Of a stretch of DNA of 64,000 nucleotides, positions 29,187-54,742 are shown in pieces. Under the pieces are notes generated by a model. That model saw only the letters and a list, made by a program, of their open reading frames with translations. It had not been told where the DNA came from and ran no database searches. Each line of letters starts with the position of its first letter. Positions within the stretch are counted from its first letter, which is position 1. The position numbers and the translations under genes were made by a program. This DNA comes from Candidatus Anderseniibacteriota bacterium (GTDB lineage: Bacteria; Patescibacteriota; Andersenbacteria; UBA10190), in assembly GCA_016197005.1 (NCBI GenBank), contig JACPWO010000001.1, forward strand, positions 218,544-282,543. Reading direction: 5' to 3'.

Positions 29187-31041
29187 ATGAAGGAGGGATC
29201 TGATAGTAATTTAGCAGCTTTTCCGATAAATCGCGGAACATTGGGGCAGCTGTACCGGACGCGAAGGAAAGGCCAGCTGGGTTATCTAGTTTAATTAGTA
29301 TTGAGAAGCGAGGATTTTCTACTGGCCCGAAACCAACAAATGAAATAATTTTACGATCTTTCGAGTACTTACCAGTCTCGTCTGATACCTGGGCTGTTCC
29401 CGTTTTTCCAGCCATATAATACCCTGGCACTCGAGCGAGACCAGCTACGCCGTTTTCAATAACGCTGACCATCATCGCACTTACCTTGTCAGCTGTCTGT
29501 TTAGAAACGACCTGACGAACAGCGGCCGGCTCGGTTACTTTTTCTTCTAACCCCTCTCTAATACGAGATACAATGCGAGGCTGCATGAGCATGCCGTCAT
29601 TTGCAATAGCGTTTATAGCATTGAGCGCTTGCAACGGAGTTAACGCCACACCTTGACCGAAACTGGCAGTAGCAACGGTTGTAATATTCCAATTATTTGG
29701 TTCGGGTAAATTCGTTTGGGTTTCTCCATCAAGTTCAACTGCTGTTCGCTCGCCCAATCCAAAGCGACGGAGATAATCGTAAATCATCTCTGCACCCATT
29801 TGCTGACCGAGCCATACCATACCGATGTTGTTCGATTGTTCGAGTACCTGTGTCATTGTTTGCACGCCGTGATGCTTACTATCGAAAGTATCAATCGTGT
29901 ATTCTGCTACTTTTACTGGTCCACTATCGGTGAAGGTTGTATTTGGCTCCACCAATCCTTCTTCGATAGCTGCTGACATAATAACCGGCTTTAAAATGGA
30001 TCCTGGTTCGAACAAGTCCGATACCACTGGATTGGTTTGTACTTCGGGGTGGTTCACCGCGTAATACGTATTGGGATCAAAGGTTGGATAGGTTGCCATG
30101 CCAAGAATAGCGCCATCTTCTGGATCCATCACAATAATGCTGCCGCGTTCCGCACCATACTTCTCTACCCCATTCTTTAGTACTTCCTCAGCGAATGATT
30201 GGACAACACGATCCAATGTGAGCACTATGTCAGCTCCATCCTTAGCCGGCCGAAATTCGCCTTCGGCTACACCAATGAAATTGCCGGCATTATCTTTTTC
30301 GGCAGATAACCACCCTAAGTCTCCTCGTAAAATTGAATCATAAAATCCTTCTACGCCGTATCTACCCACTCGCCCACTTTCTTCAAAGCCGACGTATCCG
30401 ATAGCATGCGCCGCTAGTTCACCGTCAGGGTATATTCGAATTTCCTGCTCTTCCAAGACAATACCGGGCAAGTGCTTTTCTTCTAAGTACGCTCGGAGTT
30501 CTTCGTCCAATATCTCGTGCGGGCGAAGAATTGGTTCATAAGGATCAGTTCTTTTATCAAATTTCACTTCAAATTGTTGGATAAGATCATGAATTTGTTC
30601 ATCTTCTGATTTTTCTGGTTCAGGATTTTCGATCGGGGTAGGAGTTGGCGTAGCAGCAACTGTACGCAGCTGTCCGGTGCGTTCAATAATTGCTTTAGTC
30701 CGCTCGTCCTGTCGTTTCCGATATGCGAATAAGGCCGGAGCTACTTCTCGAGCCACATAATGAGGATCGTCCATATCACGTGGGACAGCGTAGGTTATCC
30801 ATCCTTTGTCGTTACTGGCTACCGGAAAAAGATCCAGCCCTTCACTCATGTAAATAATTCCGCGATGCGGAGAAAGCTCGGAGGCGCGTTTTCGCTGCGC
30901 TTCTGCCACATTTATATAATGTCCGTGACGCACGGTCTGTAAATACACCAAGCGCACACCTAAAATACCCATAAGGATGGCAGCGGACATAATTAAAACG
31001 CCGATTCTCCATCCGCCAGTATTCAAAGATGATTGTGCCAT
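29143..31041 (-). CDS. ftsI: penicillin-binding protein 2 / FtsI (peptidoglycan D,D-transpeptidase)
   Basis: N-terminal TM, dimerisation domain, transpeptidase motifs (SILKP, SNN, KTGT); 632 aa. Confidence 0.88.
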   Translation of the reverse strand: MAQSSLNTGGWRIGVLIMSAAILMGILGVRLVYLQTVRHGHYINVAEAQRKRASELSPHRGIIYMSEGLDLFPVASNDKGWITYAVPRDMDDPHYVAREVAPALFAYRKRQDERTKAIIERTGQLRTVAATPTPTPIENPEPEKSEDEQIHDLIQQFEVKFDKRTDPYEPILRPHEILDEELRAYLEEKHLPGIVLEEQEIRIYPDGELAAHAIGYVGFEESGRVGRYGVEGFYDSILRGDLGWLSAEKDNAGNFIGVAEGEFRPAKDGADIVLTLDRVVQSFAEEVLKNGVEKYGAERGSIIVMDPEDGAILGMATYPTFDPNTYYAVNHPEVQTNPVVSDLFEPGSILKPVIMSAAIEEGLVEPNTTFTDSGPVKVAEYTIDTFDSKHHGVQTMTQVLEQSNNIGMVWLGQQMGAEMIYDYLRRFGLGERTAVELDGETQTNLPEPNNWNITTVATASFGQGVALTPLQALNAINAIANDGMLMQPRIVSRIREGLEEKVTEPAAVRQVVSKQTADKVSAMMVSVIENGVAGLARVPGYYMAGKTGTAQVSDETGKYSKDRKIISFVGFGPVENPRFSILIKLDNPAGLSFASGTAAPMFRDLSEKLLNYYQIPPSYDETGPKTKYQVPN

Positions 31042-31068: not shown

Positions 31069-31464
31069 TTAATCACCGAGCGCTACACGATCAGATAAGG
31101 TAGCTAAGTAACTGACGCGATCTGCTTCAACTAAATTAAGTTCCTGGGTTCGCTCTTCAACTGCTTGTAAGCTACGGAGTTGAGCGCCTTCGAGCTCGAG
31201 TTGTCGTTGTTGATCACGTAAATCTAAAATTTGTGCCTCAAGTTCTCGAATATTCGTGCCTTGAGACGCCGTCCCAACAACTTGCCTTAAATATAGAAAT
31301 CCAAGCATGCCAACAGTTACTAAGGCCACCATGCCTGCCACTAACGTAACAGTAGTATGACTGACACTGCCTCGCTGCGAGTTACCTTTACGTAATGATA
31401 CGCGGAAATTCCGCCGCGCTGGACGATATCTTGCACCAATAGATTGTTGAATGTTTGCTGTCAC
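31069..31464 (-). CDS. ftsL: cell division protein FtsL-like
   Basis: Single TM plus coiled coil; located between rsmH and ftsI. Confidence 0.65.
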   Translation of the reverse strand: MTANIQQSIGARYRPARRNFRVSLRKGNSQRGSVSHTTVTLVAGMVALVTVGMLGFLYLRQVVGTASQGTNIRELEAQILDLRDQQRQLELEGAQLRSLQAVEERTQELNLVEADRVSYLATLSDRVALGD

Positions 31465-31518: not shown

Positions 31519-32448
31519 TTACATTTTTTGGGCTGCTCTTAGTTTGGCTGAACGCGACCGTGGATTTCTTGCCTTCTCCTCTTGTGTAGCTACCATTGGT
31601 TTTTTAGTGAGAGTGGTAAGGCTTTTGGTCTCCTTCAGGAAGCGTTTTACGATCCGATCTTCGAGGCTATGGAAGCTGATAACAACCAGGCGTCCGTGGG
31701 TTTTGAGGTGAGAGACTGCTTTTGGCAGCCCCATCTCCAAACTTTCTAGTTCCCGATTGACTACTATCCGTAGTGCTTGAAAGGTTCGTGTTGCTGGATG
31801 AATTCGTCCCCCCTCATATCTACCCGGTACGGCTGCGATAATTTCGTCAGCGACCGCAGCAGCGGGAAGGTTAGGCGACATTCGCTTTAAAGCAGAAGCA
31901 ATGCGACGAGCATATCGTTCTTCTCCATACTGCCGCAGGATATCTGCTAGTTCCTCTTCCGGGATCCCCGCAATAAGCTCTGGAGCATCTGGGGCATACC
32001 CGAGACGCTGCTCCAGCCACTTAACTGACGGCAAGCTAGAAGGAGGAAGTTTTGGCTGTACCTGCCCCACGGTCGAGAATTTCATCGCCAGTGGTCCAGT
32101 TGATCGAAACGATATTCCTCGCTCGCTGTCGGATAGCTGATGGCTACCAACACCGAGATCAAAGAGGATATGATCAAACGTTTCATTCCCAGCCACTTCA
32201 TCGAGGTAGGCGTAAGAGGCAGCCGTGAGGCGCACCCTACTTCCATACTGCTGCAGGCGCTTTTTCGCTTGGGCAAGCGCACTGTCGTCGATATCGAGGC
32301 CGAGCACCTGTGTGTCTGCAGCAGCTGCTAAGTACATCTCAGCATGTCCGCCTAGACCAACGGTGGCATCAAGCAAATGGGTTCCTTCCTGCGGAGAAAA
32401 AAGATCGAGTACTGGCTGAGTCAGGACTGGGGTGTGACTTGGTGTCAT
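31519..32448 (-). CDS. rsmH: 16S rRNA (cytosine1402-N4)-methyltransferase RsmH
   Basis: LDATVGLGGH SAM motif, FHSLEDRIVK signature; 309 aa. Confidence 0.92.
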   Translation of the reverse strand: MTPSHTPVLTQPVLDLFSPQEGTHLLDATVGLGGHAEMYLAAAADTQVLGLDIDDSALAQAKKRLQQYGSRVRLTAASYAYLDEVAGNETFDHILFDLGVGSHQLSDSERGISFRSTGPLAMKFSTVGQVQPKLPPSSLPSVKWLEQRLGYAPDAPELIAGIPEEELADILRQYGEERYARRIASALKRMSPNLPAAAVADEIIAAVPGRYEGGRIHPATRTFQALRIVVNRELESLEMGLPKAVSHLKTHGRLVVISFHSLEDRIVKRFLKETKSLTTLTKKPMVATQEEKARNPRSRSAKLRAAQKM

Positions 32449-32876
32449 ACTCCCAGCTCCCCCATTGCTTCAGCAATATTGTCGCTCTCTTTTTCAGTAG
32501 CTGCCTTGTACTCACTCCAACTGTCCTCATTCCAGATTTCCATCCGGTTATAAAGACCAGCTACGACTACATGTTTCCCCAGGTTAGCGTAATTGCGCAG
32601 ATATTCTGGCACCATGACGCGACCCTGGCTATCAAGTGTGGCATCCCAGGCACCAGCTAACATAAGTCGAGTAAATGCTCGAGATTTTTTACTGGTGAGC
32701 GGAAGTGCGGCGAGTTTTTGCGCCAAGATCTCCCACTCTTGCTTGGGATATACAAATAGACATGTATCAAGTCCACGAGTGACTACGATTCCCTCCTGCA
32801 GCTTCCGCCGAAATTTTACCGGCAAAGCTAATCGTCCTTTTTCATCCAAACTATGAGCGTATTCTCCAATAAACAT
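32445..32876 (-). CDS. mraZ: transcriptional regulator MraZ
   Basis: Duplicated DxxxR (LDEKGRLALP / LDSQGRVMVP) motifs; 143 aa. Confidence 0.9.
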   Translation of the reverse strand: MFIGEYAHSLDEKGRLALPVKFRRKLQEGIVVTRGLDTCLFVYPKQEWEILAQKLAALPLTSKKSRAFTRLMLAGAWDATLDSQGRVMVPEYLRNYANLGKHVVVAGLYNRMEIWNEDSWSEYKAATEKESDNIAEAMGELGV

Positions 32877-33165: not shown

Positions 33166-33798
33166 CTAGTTTGATCGGGTACGCGCCACCCTTCCCTCAT
33201 GCAAGATAAGCTGCACGGCCAGGAATAGTCCGGCTCCCAGTGTGTTCATTAAGAGATCTAACGACGTATCGTAGGCAGGGCCAACCGTCTTCGTGAAGAA
33301 AATATGATCAAGGGCCAACTCTACAATCTCATTCCCCACTCCCGCTAAGGCGGTAAGTGATAATGTTAGGATAGCGGTGTAGTATGGATGATCTTCCCAT
33401 ACCTTTTGCGGTAAGTATTTAAGAAAAAACGTCCAGACGATGTACGCTACTAGTACAAATGTCGCCAGGTGCTCCGCGCGATTTATGATCGGTACTTGTT
33501 CCTGACTGCGTACTAACAGCGACACCGCATTCAGAATGAACACCGCAAAGACAAGTGGGAAAGCGTAACTAAGATCTATGCCCCGTCGCAGGAAAACGGC
33601 ATAGATCTTTTCGCAAGTGAGGTAAATGAGCAGTAGATATAGGCTCCAGACGAGTGAAATATGTTGCAGGACAGAAAAAGTCTGCGGAAAGAGATGAGAA
33701 ACTAGGATCGCCAGGAAATATAGTATGAACAATGCGCGGCAGACAAAAACAATTGCGCGCGGCTGCAAGAGAGCAGGCTGACGATCAGTGGGATTCAT
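33166..33798 (-). CDS. VanZ-like polytopic membrane protein
   Basis: C-terminal ...GPAYDTSLDLLMNTLGAGLF resembles the VanZ R/D...N..G signature; 210 aa. Confidence 0.4.
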   Translation of the reverse strand: MNPTDRQPALLQPRAIVFVCRALFILYFLAILVSHLFPQTFSVLQHISLVWSLYLLLIYLTCEKIYAVFLRRGIDLSYAFPLVFAVFILNAVSLLVRSQEQVPIINRAEHLATFVLVAYIVWTFFLKYLPQKVWEDHPYYTAILTLSLTALAGVGNEIVELALDHIFFTKTVGPAYDTSLDLLMNTLGAGLFLAVQLILHEGRVARTRSN

Positions 33799-33813
33799 AC
33801 CACTTTCAATTGC

Positions 33814-34452
33814 TTATGCGGTAACTACGCCGGATGTCGAGCGCTGCTTGTCAAAATCTGGCTGGAGCTGTTGAGGAAGCTTGTTGATCAGTTCTTTGTA
33901 GGCACCTCCGAAAAACTGACGGAGAAAAACGTCACTGAAGTTAAGACGATACTGGTATTCATTAACTGTCATCGGAGTATAACTAATTTCCCGATTAATC
34001 TGCTGCTCTATTCTATTTGCAAACTGTTGAAGCTTGTTATCTTCAATCGCTCCTACCACTAACAAATCAGTTGGTGCAGATTTAGCAGCAGTGAAATAGC
34101 CAGATACTGCGGCGTAATGAACGTCACCCACATTTTCGAGATGATTGAACAAAACATCCTGAATACCCGGTCCGGCCTTTTGCATAATCGATCCCAGTTC
34201 TGAGTACAAAATAAAATCTTCTTTTACGGTGTAATACTTACGACGACGCTCGTCGTACGTATCAAGCATGCCAACGTTTTGCAAAATAGTGAGCTCACGA
34301 CGGACAGCATTCAGTCGTTCTCCGACAATACGAGCAATCTCCCGAACGAAGTAGGGACGTTTTACTCCAGTGGTGAATAGCGTAATGATTTTGACCCGGG
34401 TACGAGAACCGAAAATCTTTTCTAGAGGAAAGGTTTTTTTTGGGCTATCCAT
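33814..34452 (-). CDS. winged-helix transcriptional regulator (ArsR/MarR-like N-terminal wHTH)
   Basis: LFGSRTRVKIITLF...REIARIVGERLNAVRRELTILQNVGML helix-turn-helix. Confidence 0.55.
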   Translation of the reverse strand: MDSPKKTFPLEKIFGSRTRVKIITLFTTGVKRPYFVREIARIVGERLNAVRRELTILQNVGMLDTYDERRRKYYTVKEDFILYSELGSIMQKAGPGIQDVLFNHLENVGDVHYAAVSGYFTAAKSAPTDLLVVGAIEDNKLQQFANRIEQQINREISYTPMTVNEYQYRLNFSDVFLRQFFGGAYKELINKLPQQLQPDFDKQRSTSGVVTA

Positions 34453-34533: not shown

Positions 34534-36708
34534 ATGGCAAGGGATCAAGCTCTGCCCGACGCACAGGAAGTATTAGTAACGCGCGAGGGCGTAGCGGGAG
34601 AAACATACCTATTTGAGCCAGGTACCGGGGAAACCCGACTAGGCTGGCTTTTTGCTGCACTCCAGACGCGTGATCGGGAAGGTATTGGTAGTGAAATCCT
34701 GGATACTGTTGCCACCGCAATTCAGCGTGAATATTACCGTGATCCCCGTCGAAGTGCTGCCTCCAGCTTTGAACTCGCTCTTCACCAGGCCAACCTCATT
34801 CTTCATGACATGGCCGAACAAGGAATGCGAGACTGGATGGTAGATTTTCATGCCTCCGTAGTTGCTCTGGCTGGTAATGAATTACATATTAGCGTGGCCG
34901 GTGAAGGTCAGGTACTGCTTGCACGCAAAGCGAACTTAACAAATATTTCGGTTGGACTTGCTCATTCACCTATTACCGATCCGCTCCAAACATTTTCTCA
35001 AGTAGCGAGCGGTATCGCGGCACCACGAGATACGCTCTACGTTGCTGGCAGCCCCCTGTCTTCTATTGTAGCTGAGACGGAACTAAAGCGACTGGCTCTA
35101 GAAAACTCCGCCAACATTATTGCCAGTCGACTTACTCAGCAAACGAAAGATACGTCGAGTACCACCTCGCTCGCGGCGGTAGTAGTAGTGTTTGCCCCAC
35201 AATATGCGGCACGAGAGAAAGATACGACAATGAGCGCGGCGCCAGCTGGTGGACGCGCAGTTAATCGGTCGTACCTTACCCCCAGACAGCCCCTCATTAT
35301 TCACCGTGGCCTGCCGCGGCAAACGTTATCCCTGCTGGGTAAAGGCAGTAAAGCTGCCTTTAACTTCACTCGTGAGCGCGTATGGCCGCACGTAAAGAGC
35401 GGATCGCGCCAAGGCGGTCGAGCACTCCTCCAGGTTTCAAAAGTTACTGGGAGCAGTCTTAAAAACGTTGCCACCGACAGGGCTGGCAGAGTGCGTTTCA
35501 AGCTGCCAAACCCGACTCAAATGGGTAAGTCTGCAGCGGTTGGTACCGCTCAGTTTACGTTGGGGCTGCGGCAACGACTCACTACCCTTCCGAAGAGCAG
35601 CAAACTGTTTGGCGTTATTTCTCTTATTTTACTCGTTCTCTTAGGGGGAAGCCTTTTACTCTTACAACAGAAGCGAGCATCCGATGCCGCCATCCAACAA
35701 GCGAGCGAAACATTACAAGAAGCCCGAGCAAAAGCAGAAGCAGCGAAGACCGCTCTCATCTATGATAATCGCGACCAGGCTAATGGATTACTTGACGAGG
35801 CAAGTACACTTACACAGCAGCTACAAGGGAAAAATATTTATATCGAAGAATCTCGCCAGCTGCTAACAGAAATCGAAGAACAACGTGATCGCCTGCAGCG
35901 CATTAGTCGTGTCGATAGTGCGAAGGTAAAAACAATTGGGGACTTTGAAGCCAATATTTCGAAAACCCCTCAGCGTTTATTCTTTGTTTCTGACGCTTTG
36001 TATGCCTATCACCCGGAAAATAACGCCATCGTTCGCATGGCGCTTGATGGTACTTCCCAAGTAGTACAACAAACCAGTCAAGGAATTGGCTTCTTCACTG
36101 AGGGGATTGTTCATACGCCTGATAAGACTATTACCTTAATAACTGACCCAGCCGGCGCTGCCCTCTTTGATACCAAAGACAACTCGCTCTCAAAACAAGA
36201 AATATCCTTTGCTTCTACGAAGCCAGTTATAGCAGATGCGGCGGTATTCGGGAATCGCTTATATGTCCTTGATCGATCAATTAATAACATTCTGTCATAC
36301 AACAAAACGCTCCGGGGGTACTCAGCCGGCACTCCTTGGATAACTGACCAAAACTTCCCGGTTCGCACTATCGTCAATATTGCGGTAGACGGAAATGTAT
36401 ATACGCTGCACGAAGATGGCAGTATCCATAGTCTGTTTAAAGGTGTAGCTGCCGAATTTAACCAGGAAGCAGTCTCCCCTATTATTCCGGCAACTGCCCG
36501 TATTATTACTACCGACGAATATCAATTCATATACGTCATTGATCCAGCCAACAAGCGCATCGTAGTCTACGACAAGAATGGTAAGCTCATCCGCCAACAT
36601 GTCGTTGACGTCGCTTCTGAATTCTCTGATGCCACTATTTATCCAGACGAGACGAAAGCCTATGTCCTGGACGGAACTCGAGTACTCGAAATTTCGCTAA
36701 CGGAATAA
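34534..36708 (+). CDS. large bitopic protein: N-terminal cytoplasmic domain, one TM helix, coiled coil, C-terminal beta-propeller-like repeat domain
   Basis: 724 aa; TM LFGVISLILLVLLGGSLLLL near residue 350; C-terminal repeated YV.D...I..Y motifs (NHL/YVTN-like). Confidence 0.5.
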   Translation: MARDQALPDAQEVLVTREGVAGETYLFEPGTGETRLGWLFAALQTRDREGIGSEILDTVATAIQREYYRDPRRSAASSFELALHQANLILHDMAEQGMRDWMVDFHASVVALAGNELHISVAGEGQVLLARKANLTNISVGLAHSPITDPLQTFSQVASGIAAPRDTLYVAGSPLSSIVAETELKRLALENSANIIASRLTQQTKDTSSTTSLAAVVVVFAPQYAAREKDTTMSAAPAGGRAVNRSYLTPRQPLIIHRGLPRQTLSLLGKGSKAAFNFTRERVWPHVKSGSRQGGRALLQVSKVTGSSLKNVATDRAGRVRFKLPNPTQMGKSAAVGTAQFTLGLRQRLTTLPKSSKLFGVISLILLVLLGGSLLLLQQKRASDAAIQQASETLQEARAKAEAAKTALIYDNRDQANGLLDEASTLTQQLQGKNIYIEESRQLLTEIEEQRDRLQRISRVDSAKVKTIGDFEANISKTPQRLFFVSDALYAYHPENNAIVRMALDGTSQVVQQTSQGIGFFTEGIVHTPDKTITLITDPAGAALFDTKDNSLSKQEISFASTKPVIADAAVFGNRLYVLDRSINNILSYNKTLRGYSAGTPWITDQNFPVRTIVNIAVDGNVYTLHEDGSIHSLFKGVAAEFNQEAVSPIIPATARIITTDEYQFIYVIDPANKRIVVYDKNGKLIRQHVVDVASEFSDATIYPDETKAYVLDGTRVLEISLTE

Positions 36709-36724: not shown

Positions 36725-39172
36725 TTAAAACTGGCTGACTGGAACCGTAAGCTGCTGACCGCCCTCTACTCTCCCAGCAATAAGTTGCTGCGCAATCCAG
36801 TATTCAACTTTGTCCTGAATAAGTCGTTTCATTGGCCGAGCTCCAAACTCAGGGTCGTATCCAGTTGCTGCTAAATAGTTTATAAGCTCATCAGTAACAG
36901 CAATAGTGATGCCATGCTGTGCATCTAGGCGAGCATTGAGACTTGTCATCATCCGAATTGCTACTTCTCGAATATGCTGAGCAGAAAGCGGCACAAAGGT
37001 AACAACACCATCAAACCGGTTCAAAAGTTCTGGTAAGAAAATACCCTTTTGCAAAATATGCTCTCGTAGCCTCGTATCAAAGTCGGGTGGAAATGTTCCG
37101 TCATCGGTAACACTGGTGCGAATAAGTTCAGCGCCAGCGTTACTGGTAGCAATAATAATACTGTGTACGAAAGAGTACTTGCGACCGCGCGCATCAGTAA
37201 TATATCCCTCATCGAGTAGAGGTAAGAAGAGTTCTTGAACGGCAACGCTCGCCTTTTCAAACTCATCAAGCAGAATAACGGAAAAAGGATGTTCGGCGAC
37301 GAGTCCAGTCAGGCGCCCGATCGGTCGACCAACCGTACCAATGAGACGTTCGATGGCGTCGCTACCTTGAAACTCTGACATATCCAGCCGCTGCAAGTAG
37401 CTTTCAGCACCGAAGTAAGCCTCCGCCAGTGCCTTTGCCGTTTCTGTTTTTCCGACTCCTGTTGGACCCAAGAACAAAAATGTACCGATCGGATGTTTGC
37501 CACTGCGCACACCGGCTCGTGCGCGAATCATAGCTCGCGAGACTGCCTCAACTCCCTCGTGCTGATTAACTACACGTCGGTGAATTTGATCAGCGAGCGA
37601 TAGGAGCCGCCCAGCCTCCTCTTGCCGCACTTTCCCAAAATCAATCCCCGTCTTGCGCGTAATGACTGCATCAACATCTTCGGGGAGAATTGTCACTGTC
37701 TTACTCCCCTCTGCTTCAACCACAACTTCTTCCAAAACATCAAAAGCTTTTTCTGGAAATGGTATGTGCGGCAAAATACTGGCGGTACTTTTTACAATTT
37801 CTTCCAGCGTCCGATACGGTAAAAACACTCCACTCTTCTTTTCCCACTGTTCAACCATCAGAGCTAAGAGTTTTAATGTTCGTTCTTCACTAAGCGGCGG
37901 TACTTCTACAATTTCAAATAAATGCTCCAGTTCGCTGTTACCAGCCAAACGCTGATGATAATCATCCAACGACATAACTGCTACTACTCTTACAGTTGGT
38001 GAAGAAAAGAAAGGCACCAGTACGTCGGTTATATTGGCCACTCCTTCTCCGCCCCCTAAGGCGCCACTTAAACCGTCGAGGACAACAATGACATTCCCCG
38101 CTCGTTCCATTTCGTTAAGAGCGCGTGAGACAATTGCGATCTGCTGCGGCCTACTATTACCTCCACTAATCAGTTGGCTGACATGAACATACAGAACTCG
38201 TTGCGATTCCAGGGCCGGATGAGCAGTTCCAGCGGCAATACGACGCATTACCTCTTTTATGACGCCAATTCTTCCCACTCCTGGTTGTCCGACTAACAAG
38301 ACATTACTCTGCCGCCGACGAGCTAAGCTATTAATAAGAAGATCTACTTGCTTCGGATGGGCCGCACCAATATCCCAGGCACTGCCGCGAGGGGGACGGG
38401 AAAACTGGTCAACCAAAGGTGTAAACCCCGCAGCCCAGGAAATACCAATTCCGGTAAAATCTAGCAGGTTCTCTTCTGACCACCAGCGTAAACGTTGGTG
38501 GTGCCACGCGCGGCGAGCCTCTTCCCACCATACCGCGAAACGAATATCTTCTTCCTGTAATTGTCGGCGACGCAGAAACATGTGCATCTGCGGATGAAGC
38601 AAGAACGCTGCCAATGCATCAGTGGCGGATATATATGAGTATTGACTACTCTGGGCGCTTATGGCTGCATCTTTGCCCATATCATCCCAGGAGTAGTTCG
38701 GCAGTACAGCTGTGGTAATTTCAGCTACAACTTCTTCTGCACTGAGCTGCAAACGCTTCAGTACCATTTGTGCAGCAGATGTCCGTAAAACATTTTTGCA
38801 GAATGATTCGAATTCCTTGCTGTTTCCTTTTTTATACGTTTGGGCAGCAAGCAGTAATCCAAAATCTGCCGCATCCGCTCCATTCTTCGTGGGCAACGTT
38901 GTTGATGGTAACCGGCGAGGTACAAACGTGATGGTATATACAAATAGCCAGCCAGCGACCAGGGCTACTGAGGCACAAAGACCACTTAGTACAAAGAGAG
39001 AGATAGGTAAAAATCCTTCCCAAAAATATCCGGTGATAGCACCGGCTACAGCCGCTGTAACCGCCCCAATTAGTACAAATGCAGACACAACACTAAGCGC
39101 CTCATTTGTTTGCACCGCCTGTAATCGACGGCGTGGATTAAAGATTTGAGTTAGATTCCCTCCGTCCGCCAT
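36725..39172 (-). CDS. membrane-anchored Clp/Hsp100-family AAA+ ATPase with degenerate D1 and intact D2
   Basis: N-terminal two TM helices. D1 Walker A GQPGVGRIG (K to R, T to G) and Walker B VVLDGL (E lost). D2 GPTGVGKTETAKALA, ILLDEFEKA, sensor-2 GARPMKR. 815 aa. Confidence 0.75.
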   Translation of the reverse strand: MADGGNLTQIFNPRRRLQAVQTNEALSVVSAFVLIGAVTAAVAGAITGYFWEGFLPISLFVLSGLCASVALVAGWLFVYTITFVPRRLPSTTLPTKNGADAADFGLLLAAQTYKKGNSKEFESFCKNVLRTSAAQMVLKRLQLSAEEVVAEITTAVLPNYSWDDMGKDAAISAQSSQYSYISATDALAAFLLHPQMHMFLRRRQLQEEDIRFAVWWEEARRAWHHQRLRWWSEENLLDFTGIGISWAAGFTPLVDQFSRPPRGSAWDIGAAHPKQVDLLINSLARRRQSNVLLVGQPGVGRIGVIKEVMRRIAAGTAHPALESQRVLYVHVSQLISGGNSRPQQIAIVSRALNEMERAGNVIVVLDGLSGALGGGEGVANITDVLVPFFSSPTVRVVAVMSLDDYHQRLAGNSELEHLFEIVEVPPLSEERTLKLLALMVEQWEKKSGVFLPYRTLEEIVKSTASILPHIPFPEKAFDVLEEVVVEAEGSKTVTILPEDVDAVITRKTGIDFGKVRQEEAGRLLSLADQIHRRVVNQHEGVEAVSRAMIRARAGVRSGKHPIGTFLFLGPTGVGKTETAKALAEAYFGAESYLQRLDMSEFQGSDAIERLIGTVGRPIGRLTGLVAEHPFSVILLDEFEKASVAVQELFLPLLDEGYITDARGRKYSFVHSIIIATSNAGAELIRTSVTDDGTFPPDFDTRLREHILQKGIFLPELLNRFDGVVTFVPLSAQHIREVAIRMMTSLNARLDAQHGITIAVTDELINYLAATGYDPEFGARPMKRLIQDKVEYWIAQQLIAGRVEGGQQLTVPVSQF

Positions 39173-39176
39173 AGTG

Positions 39177-39542
39177 TTAGAAAAGCGTCTGGATACTTAC
39201 AAATAACCCAAGGGCACCAACGACCGGCCAAGCAATAAAAACGATGACTGTAAGAATACTTGCAACTAGAACGAGCAACGCAGCGATACTATAAGTCGCT
39301 AAAGTAAAAGTGCGCACAACGAATCCAATAACTCGCGAGATCATATTCCACGCAAACGCGAGCGCCAACTTACTTAAGCCAGCTCGTTCGTACGAGACAA
39401 CATCCTTATGCCAGTGAGAGACAAGCGTACGGAGCATCAGGGGCACTGAAAAAAGTCTCAGGAGCACCCGCTGTATATTCCACGCAAGCGTCAGTAAAAA
39501 AGTGGGTGCATCCAATATATGCCAGCGAAGGAGACTAAGCAT
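39177..39542 (-). CDS. small hypothetical membrane protein immediately upstream of the Clp-like gene
   Basis: 121 aa, three TM helices; 4-nt spacing to the downstream gene. Confidence 0.4.
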   Translation of the reverse strand: MLSLLRWHILDAPTFLLTLAWNIQRVLLRLFSVPLMLRTLVSHWHKDVVSYERAGLSKLALAFAWNMISRVIGFVVRTFTLATYSIAALLVLVASILTVIVFIAWPVVGALGLFVSIQTLF

Positions 39543-39606
39543 TTCTGTATTGTAGCACGCAAAAGCCGGGCACTGCGCCCGGCCTTTGTCCTCTGGCTTA
39601 CTTACT

Positions 39607-40041
39607 TTATTTGAGTTCTACTTTGCCGCCAGCGGCTTCAATTTTCTTTTTCATTTCTTCAGCTTCTGCCTTTGGAACATTCTCTTTGATAGGGGCTGGA
39701 GCTTTGTCAACGAGATCCTTGGCATCTTTCAAACCAAGACCAGTTACTTCTCGAACTGCTTTGATGACAGCAATTTTCTGTTCACCAGTAGCAGTGAGTT
39801 CAACTGTGAAAGATGACTTTTCTGGAGCAGCTTCTCCGGCTCCGCCAGCGGCTGGAGCAGCCATCATCGCCATTGGGGCGGAAGCAGAGACACCGAATTT
39901 GTCCTCAAGAACTTTGACGAGTTCTGACAAATCGAGCACTGACATTTCTTCTACTTGCTTAACGAGATCCTTGAATTTAGTAGGAACCTCTACTGCCTTT
40001 TTGTCTTCATTTGTTTGATCTTTGGTTTCTTCTGCAACCAT
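39607..40041 (-). CDS. rplL: 50S ribosomal protein bL12 (L7/L12)
   Basis: Ala/Pro hinge and C-terminal [17 protein letters not shown]...GGKVELK. Confidence 0.93.
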
Positions 40042-40072: not shown

Positions 40073-40594
40073 TTATTCTTTTGATTCTTTAATTGCTTGC
40101 AACACATACACCATTGAACGAGGTACTCCTGACAGAACCATAGCAAAACCACGCATAGGTCCGGCCAGCACGCCAACGAGTTGCCCAAGGAGCTGCTGCC
40201 TGCTTGGAAGCTTCGCCAGCGCTGTTGCCTGTTCCATGGTAATAACATTGCCTTCCAGTACACCTGACAGAATCCGCATCTGATCTTCATGCTGTTTCGC
40301 AAATTCATAAATGAATTTAGCCGGAGCGACCACATCACTTCCCCACACCACCGCTACCTGATCTTCATGCTGTTTCGGGTCGAAATCTACTTTGGCATCA
40401 GTTAAAGCAAGCTTTAAGAGACGCTTTGGTACTACCTTCATTTTGCAACCTGCTTCATGGAGTTTATCCCGAAGATCGGTCATATCTTTCAAGGTAACGC
40501 CGTCAAAACCAACGAAGACAACTGACGTAGCTTCAGATACATCTTTGCTAACTTTTTGGATGATTTCTTCCTTTTGTGTACGAGTAAGTGACAT
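40073..40594 (-). CDS. rplJ: 50S ribosomal protein uL10
   Basis: 173 aa; directly upstream of rplL; conserved L10 N-terminal region. Confidence 0.88.
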   Translation of the reverse strand: MSLTRTQKEEIIQKVSKDVSEATSVVFVGFDGVTLKDMTDLRDKLHEAGCKMKVVPKRLLKLALTDAKVDFDPKQHEDQVAVVWGSDVVAPAKFIYEFAKQHEDQMRILSGVLEGNVITMEQATALAKLPSRQQLLGQLVGVLAGPMRGFAMVLSGVPRSMVYVLQAIKESKE

Positions 40595-40827: not shown

Positions 40828-41841
40828 TTACTGTAAATGCTCTGCCTTATTCCGGTTATGTTCGTCGTTCGTCTCGGCAAAAATGGTCTCACCCGACGGA
40901 GCAGATAAGTAGTAATAATATTCGGATGCTTCTGGTTTAATCGCGGCCGTCAGTGCACGCAGACCGGGATTGCTAATTGGGCCGGGCGGTAGACCACGGT
41001 ATTTTCGGGTGTTGTATGGCGAGTCTATCGCCAAATCTGCGACCGTAAGACCGGCTGTTGGCTTATTCAACGCATACCGAATGGTGGCATCAACGTACAG
41101 TCCTTCACCATCATCAAGTCGTTTCCATAAAATACCAGCCACGACCGCCATATCATCGTCAGTTTGCACTTCTCGTTCTAGAATACTGGCCATGTTGACC
41201 ATCTCATCCAGCGTTCGATCAGTTCCAGCCGCTAGGCCACTCTGAACAATCCGTCGATCAAAGTTTGTTAGCATACGACGAATAACATCGAGCGAAGTGT
41301 CATCTTCAAATACCCGATACGTATCTGGAAAAAGGTACCCTTCGAGTGTTCGTCCCTCTGGCAACTCACCTACAAAAGAAAATTCTTCAGCAAATTGAGC
41401 CGGACTGGAGACTGCCTGCATAAATTCCTCTTTCGTGCCAATACCACGTTCGGCCGTTCGCGCTGCTATTTGTTCGAGAGTAAAACCTTCGGGATACGTC
41501 AGGGTTAGTTCATTCTCCGTAGTATCTCCATTAATGAAGCGCGTAACGACTTCGCTGACTGGTTGTCCAATTGTTAAGTGATACGTTCCAGCCTGAATTT
41601 TATCCGCTGCTTCTTGCCGCCAGCTGTAGTACTTCCAAGGTAGCTCGCTACCAGTAAATCCTTCCGCCGCCAGTGCGCTCCACACGGCTCGGGAGGAAGT
41701 ACCGGATTCAATGGCAAAATCTCCGTCCTTTTCAAGGACAGCCCCCGCGATGAGCCAACGAAAACTAACAAGTAAGACGACGAATAGGACCAAACCGATG
41801 ATTCCGTAAAATTTGCGAGGACTTGTTACTTGAATAGCCAT
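40828..41841 (-). CDS. mltG: endolytic murein transglycosylase MltG (YceG family)
   Basis: N-terminal TM plus YceG domain; C-terminal YYYLSAPSGETIFAETNDEHNRN signature. Confidence 0.82.
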   Translation of the reverse strand: MAIQVTSPRKFYGIIGLVLFVVLLVSFRWLIAGAVLEKDGDFAIESGTSSRAVWSALAAEGFTGSELPWKYYSWRQEAADKIQAGTYHLTIGQPVSEVVTRFINGDTTENELTLTYPEGFTLEQIAARTAERGIGTKEEFMQAVSSPAQFAEEFSFVGELPEGRTLEGYLFPDTYRVFEDDTSLDVIRRMLTNFDRRIVQSGLAAGTDRTLDEMVNMASILEREVQTDDDMAVVAGILWKRLDDGEGLYVDATIRYALNKPTAGLTVADLAIDSPYNTRKYRGLPPGPISNPGLRALTAAIKPEASEYYYYLSAPSGETIFAETNDEHNRNKAEHLQ

Positions 41842-42920: not shown

Positions 42921-44354
42921 TTGGAGTGTACCGAGCATGGTAAACTATTGTCCATGTCAGTCGCTGCTCGTGCCGTTCATGGAATCAACGTCTGCGTTAT
43001 TCCCTCCCCATATAACGATGATCGTCCGCTCGCTTTGCGGCATCGCTCACTCGCCACAGTCTCCGGGGCGCTTTTGGCAGTAAAGCTCTTGGCCGCCCTA
43101 GCGATAGCTTTTGCTCCCACTCCCGCTGAGCTTTCCGTCATCACCACTAACCGTATTATCCAACTTACTAACGCTGAACGACAAAAAGGTGGCTTATCTG
43201 CTCTTACTACGAATAGCCAACTAACAGCGGCCGCTCAAGAAAAATGCAAACACATGCTTGAGGAAGATTACTTCGCCCACATTTCCCCAAGTGGTGTTAC
43301 CCCGTGGTTTTGGATAAAAAAACATGGATATACCTACCAAGTGGCTGGGGAAAACTTAGCAATTGATTTTACTGAAGCTGAAGACGTGGTAGCTGCCTGG
43401 ATGGCCAGCCCCTCCCACAAAGCGAATATTATGCACAGCGAATATACCGAGACCGGGGTGGCAGTGGTGAGTGGTGAATTTCAAGGAGGCACCTCTATTG
43501 TTGTTGTACATATGTTTGGATTACCAGCTGGCGCAACAGCTCCGTCCTCTACACCCGTCCCTACATCTACACCAGCGACTGCCGGCACTCAACAAAAAAT
43601 ATCCACCCCCACTCCCTCGCCCACCACCACTCCACTTCCTACCACCCCGACAGCAGTACCCCCGAGCCCGTCCGCTGTTCCTCTCCGCACGCCCCGCATT
43701 GCGCTGGCCGGTACCGCGACGGCCGGAGCGACCGTGCTCGTTTCAATTGAAGGCGAAGGTAACAGTGCCATTACTGTTTTAGCGAACGGACAAGCCGCCG
43801 ACACTATTAACTTGCCGCCGACTGGCCAAGCCACAGCTGCAATAAATATCTCTTCTATTCCAGATGGAGCTGTAGTCCTTCGCGCCTATGCCTCAGGCTT
43901 TGGCAGACAAAGCGAACTATCTGAAGGAGTAGCTATAACGAAGGATACGACTGGGCCAGCGCTGGCCTTTGCAGATCTTTCCTTTGTGATTTCTCCGGCC
44001 TTTGATACCGCCCAAGCAGCGGTGAGCCTGCCAAGCGTAAATGGCTCACAAAGCATTCAACTCATCGATATTCGTTCTACAGAAACACTCGAAGCGCGCG
44101 ATGAGCATGGCAACGTTTCCGTTGTAGATACGACGTCGCTTAAGCCCAGCTTCGAAGAAACCGCTCAAAGTGCAGAGCTGCGAGCGCCCCAACGACTGCT
44201 CCAGGTGTCTCGTCACATGTCAGTAGTTGTCCTCATCGTCTTACTTGTCCTGCTATCGATGGCAATAATAATCCGCATTCACGTCCAACACCCTGCTCTT
44301 ATTATGCACGCGTCGCTGGCTATTCTTCTCTCAAGTGTTCTGTTTCTGATCTAA
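42921..44354 (+). CDS. CAP/SCP/PR-1 domain protein with Pro/Thr-rich linker and C-terminal TM anchors
   Basis: CAP domain (NAERQKGGL...HMLEEDYFAH...GENLA); PT-rich linker STPVPTSTPATAGTQQKISTPTPSPTTTPLPTTPT; C-terminal hydrophobic helices. True start possibly at MSVAARAV (42954). Confidence 0.7.
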   Translation: MECTEHGKLLSMSVAARAVHGINVCVIPSPYNDDRPLALRHRSLATVSGALLAVKLLAALAIAFAPTPAELSVITTNRIIQLTNAERQKGGLSALTTNSQLTAAAQEKCKHMLEEDYFAHISPSGVTPWFWIKKHGYTYQVAGENLAIDFTEAEDVVAAWMASPSHKANIMHSEYTETGVAVVSGEFQGGTSIVVVHMFGLPAGATAPSSTPVPTSTPATAGTQQKISTPTPSPTTTPLPTTPTAVPPSPSAVPLRTPRIALAGTATAGATVLVSIEGEGNSAITVLANGQAADTINLPPTGQATAAINISSIPDGAVVLRAYASGFGRQSELSEGVAITKDTTGPALAFADLSFVISPAFDTAQAAVSLPSVNGSQSIQLIDIRSTETLEARDEHGNVSVVDTTSLKPSFEETAQSAELRAPQRLLQVSRHMSVVVLIVLLVLLSMAIIIRIHVQHPALIMHASLAILLSSVLFLI

Positions 44355-44453
44355 TTTTACACCCAAAAGGATTATTGAGATTTTGCCGTTTTAGGTGGTA
44401 AAATCCACGTGTGATGTGGAATATTGGATTTCCAACCGAAGGAGGTGTTAACC

Positions 44454-44630
44454 ATGGCTGACGCACTTATCGTCGCAAGTAAAGTCCGTGCTCACCTCAA
44501 GACTCAAGGTGTGAAGATGTCTGGTGAACTTCCGGACGCACTCAACAAGAAAGTTATGGCCCTTCTTAATGATGCCGCTGCACGCTGCAAGGGTAACAAA
44601 CGTTCTACCGTAAAACCTCAGGACGTATAA
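44454..44630 (+). CDS. small hypothetical protein (58 aa) with strong ribosome-binding site
   Basis: GAAGGAGGTG 7 nt upstream of ATG 44454. Protein MADALIVASKVRAHLKTQGVKMSGELPDALNKKVMALLNDAAARCKGNKRSTVKPQDV. The ORF-track start at 44424 is less likely. Confidence 0.5.
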   Translation: MADALIVASKVRAHLKTQGVKMSGELPDALNKKVMALLNDAAARCKGNKRSTVKPQDV

Positions 44631-44719
44631 TGATAGGGCTAGAATAGCCCGAAAAGCCCCAGGATTGCGATTTCTTGGGGTTTTTCTTATAGTAGAAAAG
44701 CCGTAAAAACCAAATAAAA

Positions 44720-44748
44720 TTGACAAATAAGGCAAATAAGGTTAATAT
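44720..44748 (+). promoter_or_regulatory. near-consensus sigma70-type promoter for the sortase gene
   Basis: TTGACA (44720-44725), 17 nt, TAATAT (44743-44748). The ATG of the sortase gene is at 44763, so the transcript is leaderless or has a very short leader. Confidence 0.6.
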
Positions 44749-44762
44749 TACCCGTTATTTAT

Positions 44763-45449
44763 ATGAAGACCTTCCCTCTCTTTTTAGCCGTTTTTGGCTT
44801 TGCCTCCCTCTTTTTCTTTGGGCTGGGCGTTGTTGCGTTAATGGTCACCCCAGTGGTTGCCAGCTTAACGGTGGGCAAAGAGGCATACCAGCCTCTCCTG
44901 CCAGTTAGCGAGGCTCGCGAGGAAGGTTTCCTGGATGTTAAGGAAAACCCCGGAAAACAGATGTATCCTGCCCTCACGACGGAAGGACAAAGCTTGCCTC
45001 AAACAAACCGTATTGTCATTCCCGCGCTTGATGTCGATGTCCCAATCATTATGAGCCCTTCGTTGGAAGATGTTGATGTTATCGCCACTCTCAATGAAGG
45101 TGCGGCCTTGTATCCCAACGGTGTACTGCCAGGACACTTAGGTAACCTCTTCATCTCTGCTCACAGCACTGGCGAGCCATGGAAGGGTAAATATCGTTTT
45201 GCTTTCCTGCGGATTAATGAGCTACAGCCAGGAAACGTTTTGCATATTGATTACAATGGCACTCGCTACACCTACACCATGACTGATCAGGAGATTGTAA
45301 CTCCAACTCCCGATTACCGCGTGGTATCTGATCGTCCGGTGCCAACACTTTCGCTCATGGCCTGCTGGCCAATTTGGTCAACCCAAAAACGCATGCTTAT
45401 TCACGCTGACCTCACCAACGTCACCAAACTGACACAGCGTCCAGCTTAA
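44763..45449 (+). CDS. sortase-family transpeptidase
   Basis: N-terminal TM; catalytic His (LFISAHS), TLSLMACWP Cys motif and a downstream Arg; 228 aa. Confidence 0.8.
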   Translation: MKTFPLFLAVFGFASLFFFGLGVVALMVTPVVASLTVGKEAYQPLLPVSEAREEGFLDVKENPGKQMYPALTTEGQSLPQTNRIVIPALDVDVPIIMSPSLEDVDVIATLNEGAALYPNGVLPGHLGNLFISAHSTGEPWKGKYRFAFLRINELQPGNVLHIDYNGTRYTYTMTDQEIVTPTPDYRVVSDRPVPTLSLMACWPIWSTQKRMLIHADLTNVTKLTQRPA

Positions 45450-45458
45450 CTCTTTTTG

Positions 45459-46253
45459 TTAACAATTCTGCGCTTTGCGCCAACCGGCCTCCGTTGCCTC
45501 TTTTTCCGTACAAAAATATTTCTCTCCCTGCGCCGCATCTATTTCTGTCCGGCCGTAACTACCACAACCCGGAAGATGATAAATCTTCTGGCCACTACTA
45601 ATATTTCCTTTGATAGTGCAATCTCCGGACGGTAGCGGCAGCGGCGTACTGGTACCAGTTGCCCCACACTGCCCGCTCCAGATCCCCCATTTCATCTGCC
45701 GAGCAAACTCTTCAGCTGTATCTAATTGCACTTGATAGGCGACGTCCGGTGGATATTTAGAAGCCCGCGCAAATCCTTCGCGTACTAACACATCGTTTAT
45801 AAAAACATCATCAACGTAGATATACCGAAGTAATCGACCCAGGCGATCGGTTTCACTTACGTCCTTTTCTAAACGAACGCGCTTTCCCTCAACCAGTGTT
45901 TTATTTTTCTCTGAAGCTTCTTTTCCTAGACACTCAACTGGCGTCCCTACCTGAACTGACTCCGGTGTATCGATGCCGATATACCGCACGCGTCTGCCAC
46001 CTACTAATACGACGGTGTCACCATCAACTACACGCTCGACGACAGCAAATTCATCCTGAGCTCCAGCTACTTTTGTTGGAGCTGGAGTCGGAGTTGGAGT
46101 ACTTACAGGTGTTGCGAGTGGAGTGGGAAGAGATGTAGGAAGAGTTAGCGGTTGTAAAGAATTATCAGTTCGTAAAATAAAGTAGCCGGCAACTATTATA
46201 ACCAGCAGCCACAGACCTTTCTTTAAGAGCGTCGCTTTTTTCGAGACCGCCAT
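45459..46253 (-). CDS. secreted thermonuclease (SNase/micrococcal nuclease-like) with C-terminal Cys-containing KIYHxPGCxxY module
   Basis: Signal/TM; PT-rich linker; SNase core RVVDGDTVVL...RYIGIDTPE...GRLLRYIYVDD; C-terminal CTIKGNISSGQKIYHLPGCGSYGRT...C. Confidence 0.75.
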   Translation of the reverse strand: MAVSKKATLLKKGLWLLVIIVAGYFILRTDNSLQPLTLPTSLPTPLATPVSTPTPTPAPTKVAGAQDEFAVVERVVDGDTVVLVGGRRVRYIGIDTPESVQVGTPVECLGKEASEKNKTLVEGKRVRLEKDVSETDRLGRLLRYIYVDDVFINDVLVREGFARASKYPPDVAYQVQLDTAEEFARQMKWGIWSGQCGATGTSTPLPLPSGDCTIKGNISSGQKIYHLPGCGSYGRTEIDAAQGEKYFCTEKEATEAGWRKAQNC

Positions 46254-47527: not shown

Positions 47528-47560
47528 AGCAGCAGTGTATCAAATTCTTCTCCCTAACTA

Positions 47561-47587
47561 AACAACCCTGCTGTACGCAGGGTTGTT
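47561..47587. repeat. stable hairpin downstream of the first DUF11 gene; a related copy follows the second paralog
   Basis: AACAACCCTG-ctgtacg-CAGGGTTGTT. No clear T-tract on either strand, so it is not a canonical intrinsic terminator. Confidence 0.4.
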
Positions 47588-47609
47588 ATTACAGGTTTTA
47601 TGGAGTTAT

Positions 47610-48992: not shown

Positions 48993-49062
48993 AAATACGT
49001 CAGATAATTAAAGGTTAACAAATTAGAATACGAAGGAAATCCCCGAACTGTCAATCTCATTT

Positions 49063-49097
49063 ACAACAACAACCCGGCACTGTGCAGGGTTGTTGTT
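49063..49097. repeat. 12-bp-stem hairpin downstream of the second DUF11 gene, related to the 47561 hairpin
   Basis: CAACAACAACCC-ggcactgtgca-GGGTTGTTGTTG; shares the AACAACCC/GGGTTGTT core with the 47561 hairpin. Confidence 0.4.
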
Positions 49098-49118
49098 GAG
49101 TCTGATCATCTTCTGAAC

Positions 49119-52427: not shown

Positions 52428-52465
52428 TTATTCTAGTTTATGCTTCCTTTTTTACTCGCTCAAGT

Positions 52466-52885: not shown

Positions 52886-52914
52886 AAATACGGTATATTG
52901 TTTTTACTATATCT

Positions 52915-54741: not shown

Positions 54742-54742
54742 T

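Follow-up and report, generated by a model that had tools for sequence, protein, structure and literature searches.

Proteins of the Clp/Hsp100 class are the textbook threading unfoldases, and aromatic residues of the pore-1 loop are used by the threading motors of this class as well as by FtsH and Msp1. In NSF and Pex1/Pex6, one ring (D2 and D1, respectively) is inactive and is kept as a hydrolysis-deficient scaffold, with the other ring acting as the motor. For Clp/Hsp100 proteins, aromatic pore loops have been described as critical to processive unfolding (PMC5425593). Torsins are Clp-like and membrane-associated, lack aromatic pore loops and depend on membrane cofactors; they have a single AAA+ module, and their own arginine finger is missing and is supplied by the AAA-like membrane cofactor (PMC5425593). 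Here, we analyse a two-gene module in a stretch of 64,000 nucleotides (nt) of contig JACPWO010000001.1 from a Candidatus Anderseniibacteriota bacterium, which we refer to as the window. The module encodes an ATPase of 815 amino acids (aa) and, just upstream, a small membrane protein of 121 aa, which we call the partner. As judged from sequence comparisons and predicted structures, a known motor family appears here in a new, conserved two-component membrane architecture, with its threading hardware lost. We found no description in the literature of a membrane-anchored Hsp100 from bacteria or from the Candidate Phyla Radiation (CPR), or of the partner family.

In Pfam, the ATPase matches AAA_2 (6.2e-36) and ClpB_D2-small (5.8e-21), both within aa 561-810, and all AAA matches in its first module are sub-threshold. 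The NCBIfam models for ClpB, ClpA, ClpG, ClpK and ClpV match at one quarter to one third of their cut-offs (e.g., approximately 350 bits versus 1232 for TIGR03346 (ClpB), and 317 bits versus 993 for TIGR02639 (ClpA)), and neither Pfam nor NCBIfam yields a match to Peptidase_M41 or FtsH_ext. The best sequence matches in the PDB are S. aureus ClpC, T. thermophilus ClpB and E. coli ClpA. Since ClpA aligns as a single stretch and ClpB and ClpC in two, skipping their M-domains, the ATPase has no M-domain; the first AAA+ module (D1) ends at approximately aa 486 and the second (D2) begins at approximately aa 492-497, so that ClpB residues ~415-518 are without a counterpart. An AlphaFold2 (AF2) model, generated from a 72-sequence family alignment, has a predicted local distance difference test score (pLDDT) of 92.1 and a predicted template-modelling score (pTM) of 0.87. 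Its top Foldseek matches are the protomers of ClpC, ClpB, ClpC1 and ClpA, with template-modelling scores normalised to the target (TMt) of about 0.75-0.83 over ~575 columns. These comparisons make it very probable that the ATPase is a relative of the class-I Clp/Hsp100 proteins, with a layout consisting of a transmembrane (TM) hairpin, a divergent Clp N-domain, a tryptophan-rich linker, D1 and D2.

Hydropathy analysis of the ATPase shows two strong segments at about aa 27-49 and 55-83, matched by helices 29-52 and 57-82 in the AF2 model, in agreement with the two N-terminal TM helices proposed by an earlier, sequence-only reading of this DNA. The segments are bracketed by RRR14-16 and RR86-87, which, following the positive-inside rule, argues for a hairpin with both ends in the cytoplasm (N-in/C-in). 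N-terminal hydrophobic segments are seen in homologues as well, and in 37 of 39 unfused metagenomic relatives, versus none of 7 canonical Clp proteins. We thus predict, with high confidence, that the ATPase has its anchor in the cytoplasmic membrane and that D1 and D2 are both cytoplasmic. The TM helices had also been taken to replace the Clp N-domain, which turned out to be wrong, as residues ~92-240 form a divergent version of this domain. A profile of the region, built from 11 family members, aligned to canonical Clp N-domains in hhalign with a probability of 85% (E 6e-6), and a PDB profile search returned the ClpA N-domain first (E 4e-5), followed by Hsp104-N (9e-4). Pfam Clp_N gives a weak match in 3 of 8 homologues (best 8e-4), and only the second repeat of the Clp_N double repeat aligns confidently. 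The N-domain leads into a family-specific linker with the motif F..WW...RWW..E.LL.F.GIGLSWA.G[FY]TP.VD.F...P.G..WD, in which W215, W216, W230, W231, W246 and W266 are invariant.

When aligned to canonical Clp proteins, D1 is found to have lost the Walker A lysine and threonine, the Walker B glutamate, both arginine fingers, the sensor-1 threonine and the KYRG motif of the pore (Table 1). The missing lysine and glutamate had already been pointed out from the sequence, and the remaining losses add to them. A sequencing or frame artefact behind these changes is ruled out by their recurrence across approximately 78 full-length homologues (46-58% identity): GxxGxG[R/Q/H]xG is present in every one, and hhhhDG occurs at the Walker B position in all save two (P0044 with GG, P0049 with SG). 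For a wider view, motif tallies for D1 and D2 were made in 52 partner-linked relatives (the broad set). Here, the degeneration of D1 is variable but general, with lysine at the Walker A position in 25/52 and arginine in 24/52, and with the Walker A threonine kept in 5/52, the Walker B glutamate in 19/52 and the 2 arginine fingers in 4/52 and 3/52. Mean pairwise identities in the core family are 24-26% for the TM and N regions, 52% for the linker, 59% for the D1 large subdomain and 64% for that of D2. Because its large subdomain is nearly as conserved as that of D2, we interpret D1 as a structural scaffold and not as a product of decay. D1, which also shows weak similarity to Pfam NBD_SMAX1, therefore looks like a catalytically dead module that has been retained as a scaffold, and the earlier view of a Clp/Hsp100-class protein that is tethered to the membrane and whose first ring is inactive is supported.

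The catalytic residues of D2 are all in place. The Walker A lysine, the Walker B Asp-Glu pair, the sensor-1 asparagine, the arginine finger (NRFD) and the sensor-2 arginine (GAR, within GARPMKR in the window protein) are present in 52 of the 52 broad-set members, and they are also kept across the core family and in a set of distant TM-anchored homologues. By tblastn, D2 is 44% identical to a canonical Clp protein. The sequence-only reading described D2 as canonical, and this holds for the catalytic motifs but not for the pore-1 loop, which is short and non-aromatic. Across the broad set, the loop has 9-12 aa compared to 15 in canonical Clp proteins, making it 3-6 residues shorter; the residues at its tip vary and are frequently polar or acidic, and the tyrosine of GYVG is gone across the family. 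At the base of the loop, the clade of the window protein has an arginine where many members of the broad set have a hydrophobic or aromatic residue. With aromatic pore-1 residues lacking in both rings and the D2 loop truncated family-wide, the proposed label of an unfoldase for membrane-protein extraction is weakened.

The ATPase is also not expected to dock ClpP. The region following sensor-1, which is the site of the ClpP loop in ClpA/ClpC/ClpX-type proteins, is short and ClpB-like, and the ClpP-docking tripeptide [ILV]-G-[FL] is absent in every family member surveyed, in line with the earlier remark that no IGF/LGF loop could be seen. In tblastn searches, with E. coli ClpP as the ClpP query, the 64 kb of the window yielded neither a ClpP gene nor a second gene for a Clp protein. 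With neither a docking loop nor a ClpP gene within the window, ClpP partnership was rejected.

The partner consists of a conserved, basic and helical N-terminal region and a 44-residue hydrophobic stretch (Table 1). Its AF2 model (pLDDT 91.7) has helices at residues 2-30, 33-41 and 56-120, and only aa 78-121 are strongly hydrophobic, so the three-TM architecture initially proposed is not established. Among 93 sequences, W7, W44, N66, R70 and G73 are invariant, while F31, S32, T39, L40, F41, R77 and P106 are nearly so; the N-terminal motif reads W..AP....N...FS[IV]..LL[KR]TLF.PW[KR].....N.ISR.IGF.VR., and the nearly invariant Pro106 lies in the middle of the hydrophobic stretch. This stretch is probably a tight helical hairpin, and the N-terminal region (aa 1-77) would be cytoplasmic. 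Foldseek comparison of the model with the PDB gave no fold match (best E 2.8), and there is no match to the partner in Pfam, NCBIfam, PADLOC or PHROG, with 68 relatives likewise lacking a family match in Pfam. A known fold for the partner was rejected on the basis of these empty comparisons. The family itself is large. A profile search of 1.84 billion representatives recovered 754 representatives at 50% identity, and the family comprises at least 1455 clusters at 90% identity. The named sources are exclusively Andersenbacteria, Parcubacteria, Paceibacterota, Pacebacteria and 'Patescibacteria group', and nearly all members that have a name are labelled 'hypothetical protein', with 2 carrying automated Joint Genome Institute (JGI) labels (ABC-type transporter subunit, VirB6-like).

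The 2 open reading frames (ORFs) of 815 and 121 aa were confirmed, with the ATPase start located 4 nt (CACT) past the partner stop codon, as first noted. In a species-representative set of 17 genomes with the ATPase family, 15 loci include upstream DNA, and the partner is encoded directly upstream of the ATPase in 14 of these and fused to it in 1. More distant relatives (33-40% identity) in other gene neighbourhoods also have a partner homologue of ~125 aa immediately upstream (BLASTP E 4e-9); in one example, the pair is preceded by a NAD kinase gene and followed by a gene of the YkuD/penicillin-binding protein (PBP) type. Partner-family matches of at least 590 aa are all N-terminal fusions to Clp-like ATPases, and such fusions occur in 2 similarity groups, with 47-50% and 29-36% identity to the window protein. 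Metagenomes were scanned with a degenerate DNA pattern for FS[IV]xxLL[KR]TLFSPW, which retrieved 120 loci, every one of them with a partner-family ORF. The ATPase is fused to the partner in 21 of these loci, directly downstream in 59, and one gene away or split in 4; in a further 25 of the 120, the N-terminus of the ATPase runs off the contig. None of the 120 loci with sufficient DNA is without the ATPase. The coupling to a small membrane protein that had been suggested is therefore borne out by adjacency in different neighbourhoods and by natural fusions, and the evidence for it is strong and independent of local synteny. In certain fusions, the hydrophobic stretch of the partner is the sole membrane anchor, showing that the hairpins of ATPase and partner are functionally interchangeable as anchors. 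These single-anchor fusions also place the N-terminal region of the partner and the AAA+ modules on the same, cytoplasmic, side of the membrane.

The surveys of these loci yielded some additional observations. The fusions come in two forms, with either 2 or 3 hydrophobic segments ahead of the Clp N-domain (contrasting sets of examples are listed in Table 1). For a 27%-identity relative from the genome scan (L017 591-3164 (+)), no partner-family ORF was detected within 590 bp of upstream sequence. A few metagenomic loci have an additional gene separating partner and ATPase (L056 2765-3586 (-); L136 3710-4102 (+)); that of L056 codes for a type IV pilin-like protein whose N-terminal motif is FTLIELLVVIAIIG. 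In 12-16 loci (e.g., L040 9529-9867 (+), L086 2229-2576 (+)), the partner is closely preceded, on its own strand, by two extra small ORFs coding for a protein of ~112 aa with terminal hydrophobic segments and a basic protein of ~115 aa (…KAKMRQYRFSEKRVL…). These ORFs may be a clade-specific operon extension.

Taken together, our preferred explanation, to which we give even weight for and against, is that the pair is an obligate two-subunit membrane AAA+ remodeller that is driven by D2, specific to Patescibacteria (CPR), and probably not threading its substrates. Based on the translational-coupling spacing, the adjacency in all informative loci and the repeated fusions, we propose that the partner and the ATPase associate stably on the cytoplasmic side of the membrane, in a complex that is probably stoichiometric. 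By homology with the ClpA/B/C hexamers, the ATPase is predicted to form a ring with its N-domain/D1 face against the membrane. D1 would not hydrolyse ATP and would act as a structural scaffold, and D2 would be the sole motor since all of its catalytic residues are invariant. ATP-driven movements of D2 would then most likely remodel or switch, in a non-processive manner, either a client close to the membrane or the partner itself, similar to what has been proposed for Torsin and its membrane cofactors. Processive threading seems unlikely because the aromatic-hydrophobic pair is missing from both pore-1 loops, that of D2 being truncated as well. Similarly, the absence of a docking loop argues against a component of a ClpP protease, and that of an M-domain against a DnaK-coupled disaggregase. 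A bolder version, possible but tentative, is that of a new machine present throughout Patescibacteria, in which threading has been given up and D2 acts on or through the partner, possibly in the envelope or in division, as a counterpart of the Torsin-cofactor systems.

Several points weigh against the D2-driven, non-threading remodeller. First, a missing canonical aromatic residue does not prove that threading is absent, and in many members of the broad family, the D2 loop still has a hydrophobic or aromatic residue at its base (G-[L/I/F/Y]-LT). Second, the oligomeric state, the stoichiometry and the contacts with the partner are ones that we infer. In ClpB, the D1 arginine fingers are reported to be needed for oligomerisation (PMC4239642), and their loss here may thus put hexamer formation in doubt. 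If a ring forms at all, it may require D2, membrane tethering or the partner. Third, some fusions carry 3 hydrophobic segments, which is hard to square with a simple hairpin in the partner, and the hydropathy of fusions with 2 versus 3 segments gives conflicting constraints on partner topology. Finally, linkage of the module to the division and cell wall (dcw) genes, discussed below, holds for no more than about a third of the diverse loci and may simply reflect a gene order that was inherited.

The first point bears directly on an alternative that we consider rather doubtful, namely that the ATPase is a genuine threading unfoldase or membrane-protein extractase, with the partner as adaptor or anchor, involved in FtsH- or Msp1-like quality control without a protease. 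In such a machine, the D1-facing pore would lie under the membrane, and D2 would pull substrates from the bilayer through the ring. The geometry fits, as the TM hairpin is followed by the N-domain and then by a D1 that would face the membrane, like in FtsH and Msp1. In addition, D2 has an intact ATPase site, the fold of the protomer can be superposed on those of threading Clp proteins, and a hydrophobic or aromatic residue is retained at the D2 loop base in some relatives. However, the conserved aromatic pore-1 residue, of a kind described as critical for processive unfolding by Clp/Hsp100 proteins (PMC5425593), is missing from both rings family-wide, and the D2 loop is 3-6 residues short with a variable and often polar or acidic tip. 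Moreover, without a ClpP loop or protease domain, extracted proteins would have no built-in fate.

We next consider the genomic surroundings of the module. The minus-strand order in the window is mltG, rplJ, rplL, partner and ATPase. Past the ATPase lie a convergent plus-strand gene for a 724-aa protein, genes for a 212-aa protein and a 210-aa membrane protein, and then mraZ, mraW, an ftsL-like gene and ftsI. A protein deposited for a Candidatus Andersenbacteria metagenome-assembled genome shows 100% identity to the ATPase, which places the source of the window in the CPR/Patescibacteria. A palindromic hairpin rich in G+C follows rplL, and in the region 39543-39606, TACAAT sits 8 nt ahead of the partner ATG, both of these being consensus matches only. 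The hairpin and TACAAT may act as a terminator/promoter boundary that sets the two-gene module apart from the rplJL unit, with a nearly leaderless transcript. The 724-aa ORF has no Pfam match and only a weak NHL-like match at its C-terminus; of the 17 species-representative loci, 13 have it beside the module, and 7 diverse metagenomic loci encode a similar protein on the opposite strand. Andersenbacteria-type loci retain the upstream genes as well as the 724-aa and 212-aa genes. Consistent linkage of the module to secretion genes is not seen, the recurrent neighbours being rplJL and genes of the dcw cluster and peptidoglycan metabolism.

The placement next to dcw and peptidoglycan genes is a weak hint at a client in the cell envelope or in division. 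It has led us to consider, as an unlikely but more specific version of the remodeller proposal that does not exclude it, a dedicated assembly or regulatory factor for the division and peptidoglycan machinery of Parcubacteria, in which the D2 motor would remodel or recycle membrane proteins of the divisome or elongasome. Among 45 diverse metagenomic loci with sufficient DNA downstream, 15 have mraZ-mraW-ftsL-ftsI directly after the ATPase on the same strand, and in the window, the dcw cluster lies ~4 kb downstream of the module. Genes for MltG, FtsQ-like and MurF-like proteins recur nearby (these names come from reading sequences and not from a family search), with MltG/YceG encoded upstream of the module in the window and in 6 other loci, and a YkuD/PBP-like gene follows the ATPase gene in locus L018. 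By contrast, approximately two thirds of the diverse loci have other neighbours, and the order of rplJL, module and dcw could be ancestral synteny in small genomes.

Two further explanations appear very improbable. An anti-phage defence or mobile two-gene system like Dodola DolB or PDC-M37B is suggested by matches of the PADLOC models DolB (6e-24) and PDC-M37B (1e-25) to aa ~518-688, but we reject it because these matches do not extend beyond the generic AAA core of D2, neither PADLOC nor PHROG has a match for the partner, and the module occupies a conserved housekeeping position between rplJL and dcw in species at 40-58% identity, as is typical of core genes inherited vertically and not of defence islands. 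A decaying or non-enzymatic Clp paralogue, which like plant SMAX1/D53 would be a scaffold without any ATP-driven activity, would account for the catalytically dead D1 with its weak NBD_SMAX1 similarity and for the loss of the pore loops, but is hardly credible for a widely conserved, intact ORF in which the 5 D2 catalytic elements are invariant (52/52, and kept in the core and distant homologue sets) and D1 and D2 are under strong purifying selection (59-64% identity versus 24% in the TM region).

Table 1. Positions of the module, its protein features, neighbouring genes and fusion examples (positions refer to the window unless a metagenomic locus is named; aa numbers refer to the encoded protein).
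Feature	Position	Strand	Remarks
ATPase gene, 815 aa	36725..39172	-	ORF call; Pfam, PDB and NCBIfam matches
ATPase TM helical hairpin, aa 27-83	38924..39094	-	Hydropathy, AF2
ATPase divergent Clp N-domain and start of Trp-rich linker, aa 98-240	38453..38881	-	hhalign, PDB profile search, Pfam
ATPase Trp-rich N-to-D1 linker, aa 206-268	38369..38557	-	Family-specific; conservation
D1 AAA+ module, aa 270-490	37703..38365	-	Aligns to D1 of ClpC, ClpB and ClpA
D1 Walker A, degenerate	38264..38290	-	GQPGVGRIG (canonical GxPGVGKTA)
D1 pore-1 position	38138..38167	-	SGGNSRPQQI (canonical AG.KYRGEFE), no aromatic
D1 Walker B, degenerate	38069..38092	-	VIVVLDGL (canonical hhhhDE)
D1 arginine-finger position	37913..37930	-	LEHLFE (canonical LERRFQ), both Arg gone
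D2 AAA+ and D2-small domain, aa 497-815	36728..37684	-	Pfam AAA_2, ClpB_D2-small
D2 Walker A	37442..37468	-	GPTGVGKTE
D2 pore-1 loop, truncated, without aromatic	37307..37345	-	LIGTVGRPIGRLT (canonical LIGAPPGYVGYEEGGQLT); HMMER alignment to ClpC and ClpB
D2 Walker B	37253..37276	-	ILLDEFEK
Post-sensor-1 region, short and ClpB-like	37073..37132	-	…TSVTDDGTFPPDFD…; ClpP-loop site in ClpA/ClpC/ClpX-type proteins
Small-partner gene, 121 aa	39177..39542	-	ORF call
Partner conserved basic helical N-terminal region, aa 1-77	39312..39542	-	Conservation, charge profile, AF2
Partner 44-residue hydrophobic stretch, aa 78-121	39180..39311	-	Kyte-Doolittle maximum 3.08
G+C-rich palindromic hairpin after rplL	39565..39583	-	Followed by TTTT on the minus strand; the scan flagged a plus-strand palindrome
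rplL	39607..40041	-	Upstream of partner
rplJ	40073..40594	-	Upstream of partner
MltG/YceG gene	40828..41841	-	Upstream of partner; name from reading the sequence
724-aa ORF	34534-36708	+	Tail-to-tail with ATPase gene; central hydrophobic segment (…LFGVISLILLVLLGGSLLLL…)
Two conserved genes between module and mraZ	33166-34452	-	212-aa and 210-aa proteins
mraZ	32445-32876	-	Start of dcw cluster, ~4 kb downstream of module
mraW/rsmH	31519-32448	-	dcw cluster
ftsL-like gene	31069-31464	-	dcw cluster
ftsI/PBP	29143-31041	-	dcw cluster
CAP-domain protein	42921-44354		Cell-surface cluster
Sortase	44763-45449		Cell-surface cluster
SNase-like nuclease	45459-46253		Cell-surface cluster
Two DUF11-repeat proteins	47610-48992, 49119-50816		Cell-surface cluster
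Fusion example, set one, L030	603-3170	+	
Fusion example, set one, L088	9613-12108	-	
Fusion example, set one, L085	2589-5030	-	
Fusion example, set two, L114	3586-5874	-	Contrasted with L030/L088/L085
Fusion example, set two, L027	815-3328	-	Contrasted with L030/L088/L085

Some observations concern the remainder of the window. The 212-aa neighbour gives a weak HVO_A0114-like (winged-helix) match, and the 210-aa neighbour is a multi-pass membrane protein without a family match. A likely cell-surface gene cluster is located at 42921-50816. GC skew turns positive only at 48-50 kb, and the region 52000-58000 has a G+C content of 0.39-0.41 compared to ~0.47 elsewhere in the window, which may point to an island or to a region of different composition.

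The annotations under which these ATPases appear in databases ('ATP-dependent Clp protease ATP-binding subunit', 'ClpC' and 'AAA family ATPase') are, in the case of the first two, misleading. A large natural family with a perfect D2 site in which the gripping loops are gone would constitute an evolutionary experiment in other uses of a Clp motor. In addition, the association with the ATPase gives the partner family, with its many clusters, both a partner and a context, and flags a lineage-specific membrane component in the CPR, whose envelope and division biology is poorly understood.

How does the module compare with systems that have been described? The Dodola (DolB) and PDC-M37 systems have ClpB-like ATPases encoded in defence islands; here, only the D2 core matches and the position is syntenic. 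Plant SMAX1/SMXL/D53 proteins share a double Clp-like module with degenerate ATPase features and the weak NBD_SMAX1 match in D1, but they are soluble nuclear repressors, whereas the ATPase described here is membrane-anchored and has a D2 that is fully catalytic in sequence. The combination of one conserved dead scaffold ring with one motor ring is shared with NSF and Pex1/Pex6, which in contrast belong to the classical clade, are either soluble or recruited peripherally, and retain working pore loops in their active ring. FtsH and Msp1/ATAD1 likewise use an N-terminal TM anchor to hold a ring ATPase at the cytoplasmic membrane face, but they are from another AAA clade, have a single module and depend on aromatic pore loops, and FtsH has an M41 protease.

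With ClpA, ClpC and ClpB/Hsp104, the class-I Clp proteins, the ATPase shares the tandem AAA+ organisation with AAA_2 and ClpB_D2-small, the Clp N-domain, the fold and the D2 catalytic residues. It differs by the addition of an N-terminal TM hairpin and an obligate small membrane partner, and by a D1 without the Walker A Lys/Thr, Walker B Glu, arginine fingers, sensor-1 and pore tyrosine. The conserved aromatic pore-1 loops of class-I proteins (KYRG in D1 and GYVG in D2) are absent, with the D2 loop shortened as well, and so are the M-domain of ClpB/ClpC and the ClpP-docking loop of ClpA/ClpC.

Finally, Torsins of the endoplasmic reticulum and nuclear envelope, which work with LAP1/LULL1, have in common with the ATPase a fold like that of Clp/Hsp100 D2, a membrane association via N-terminal hydrophobic segments, the lack of aromatic pore loops and a function tied to a membrane-protein partner. 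Unlike the luminal, single-module Torsins, the ATPase would be cytoplasmic and has 2 modules, including a dead D1 ring, and its D2 arginine finger (NRFD, 52/52) and sensor-2 arginine are intact. Moreover, the Torsin cofactor is AAA-like, while the partner is an all-helical, non-AAA protein of ~125 aa. The resemblance would thus be functional and architectural, with homology shown only as common Clp ancestry. Nevertheless, the module offers a bacterial system, simple in sequence terms, to compare with the Torsins, the mechanism of which is unsettled.

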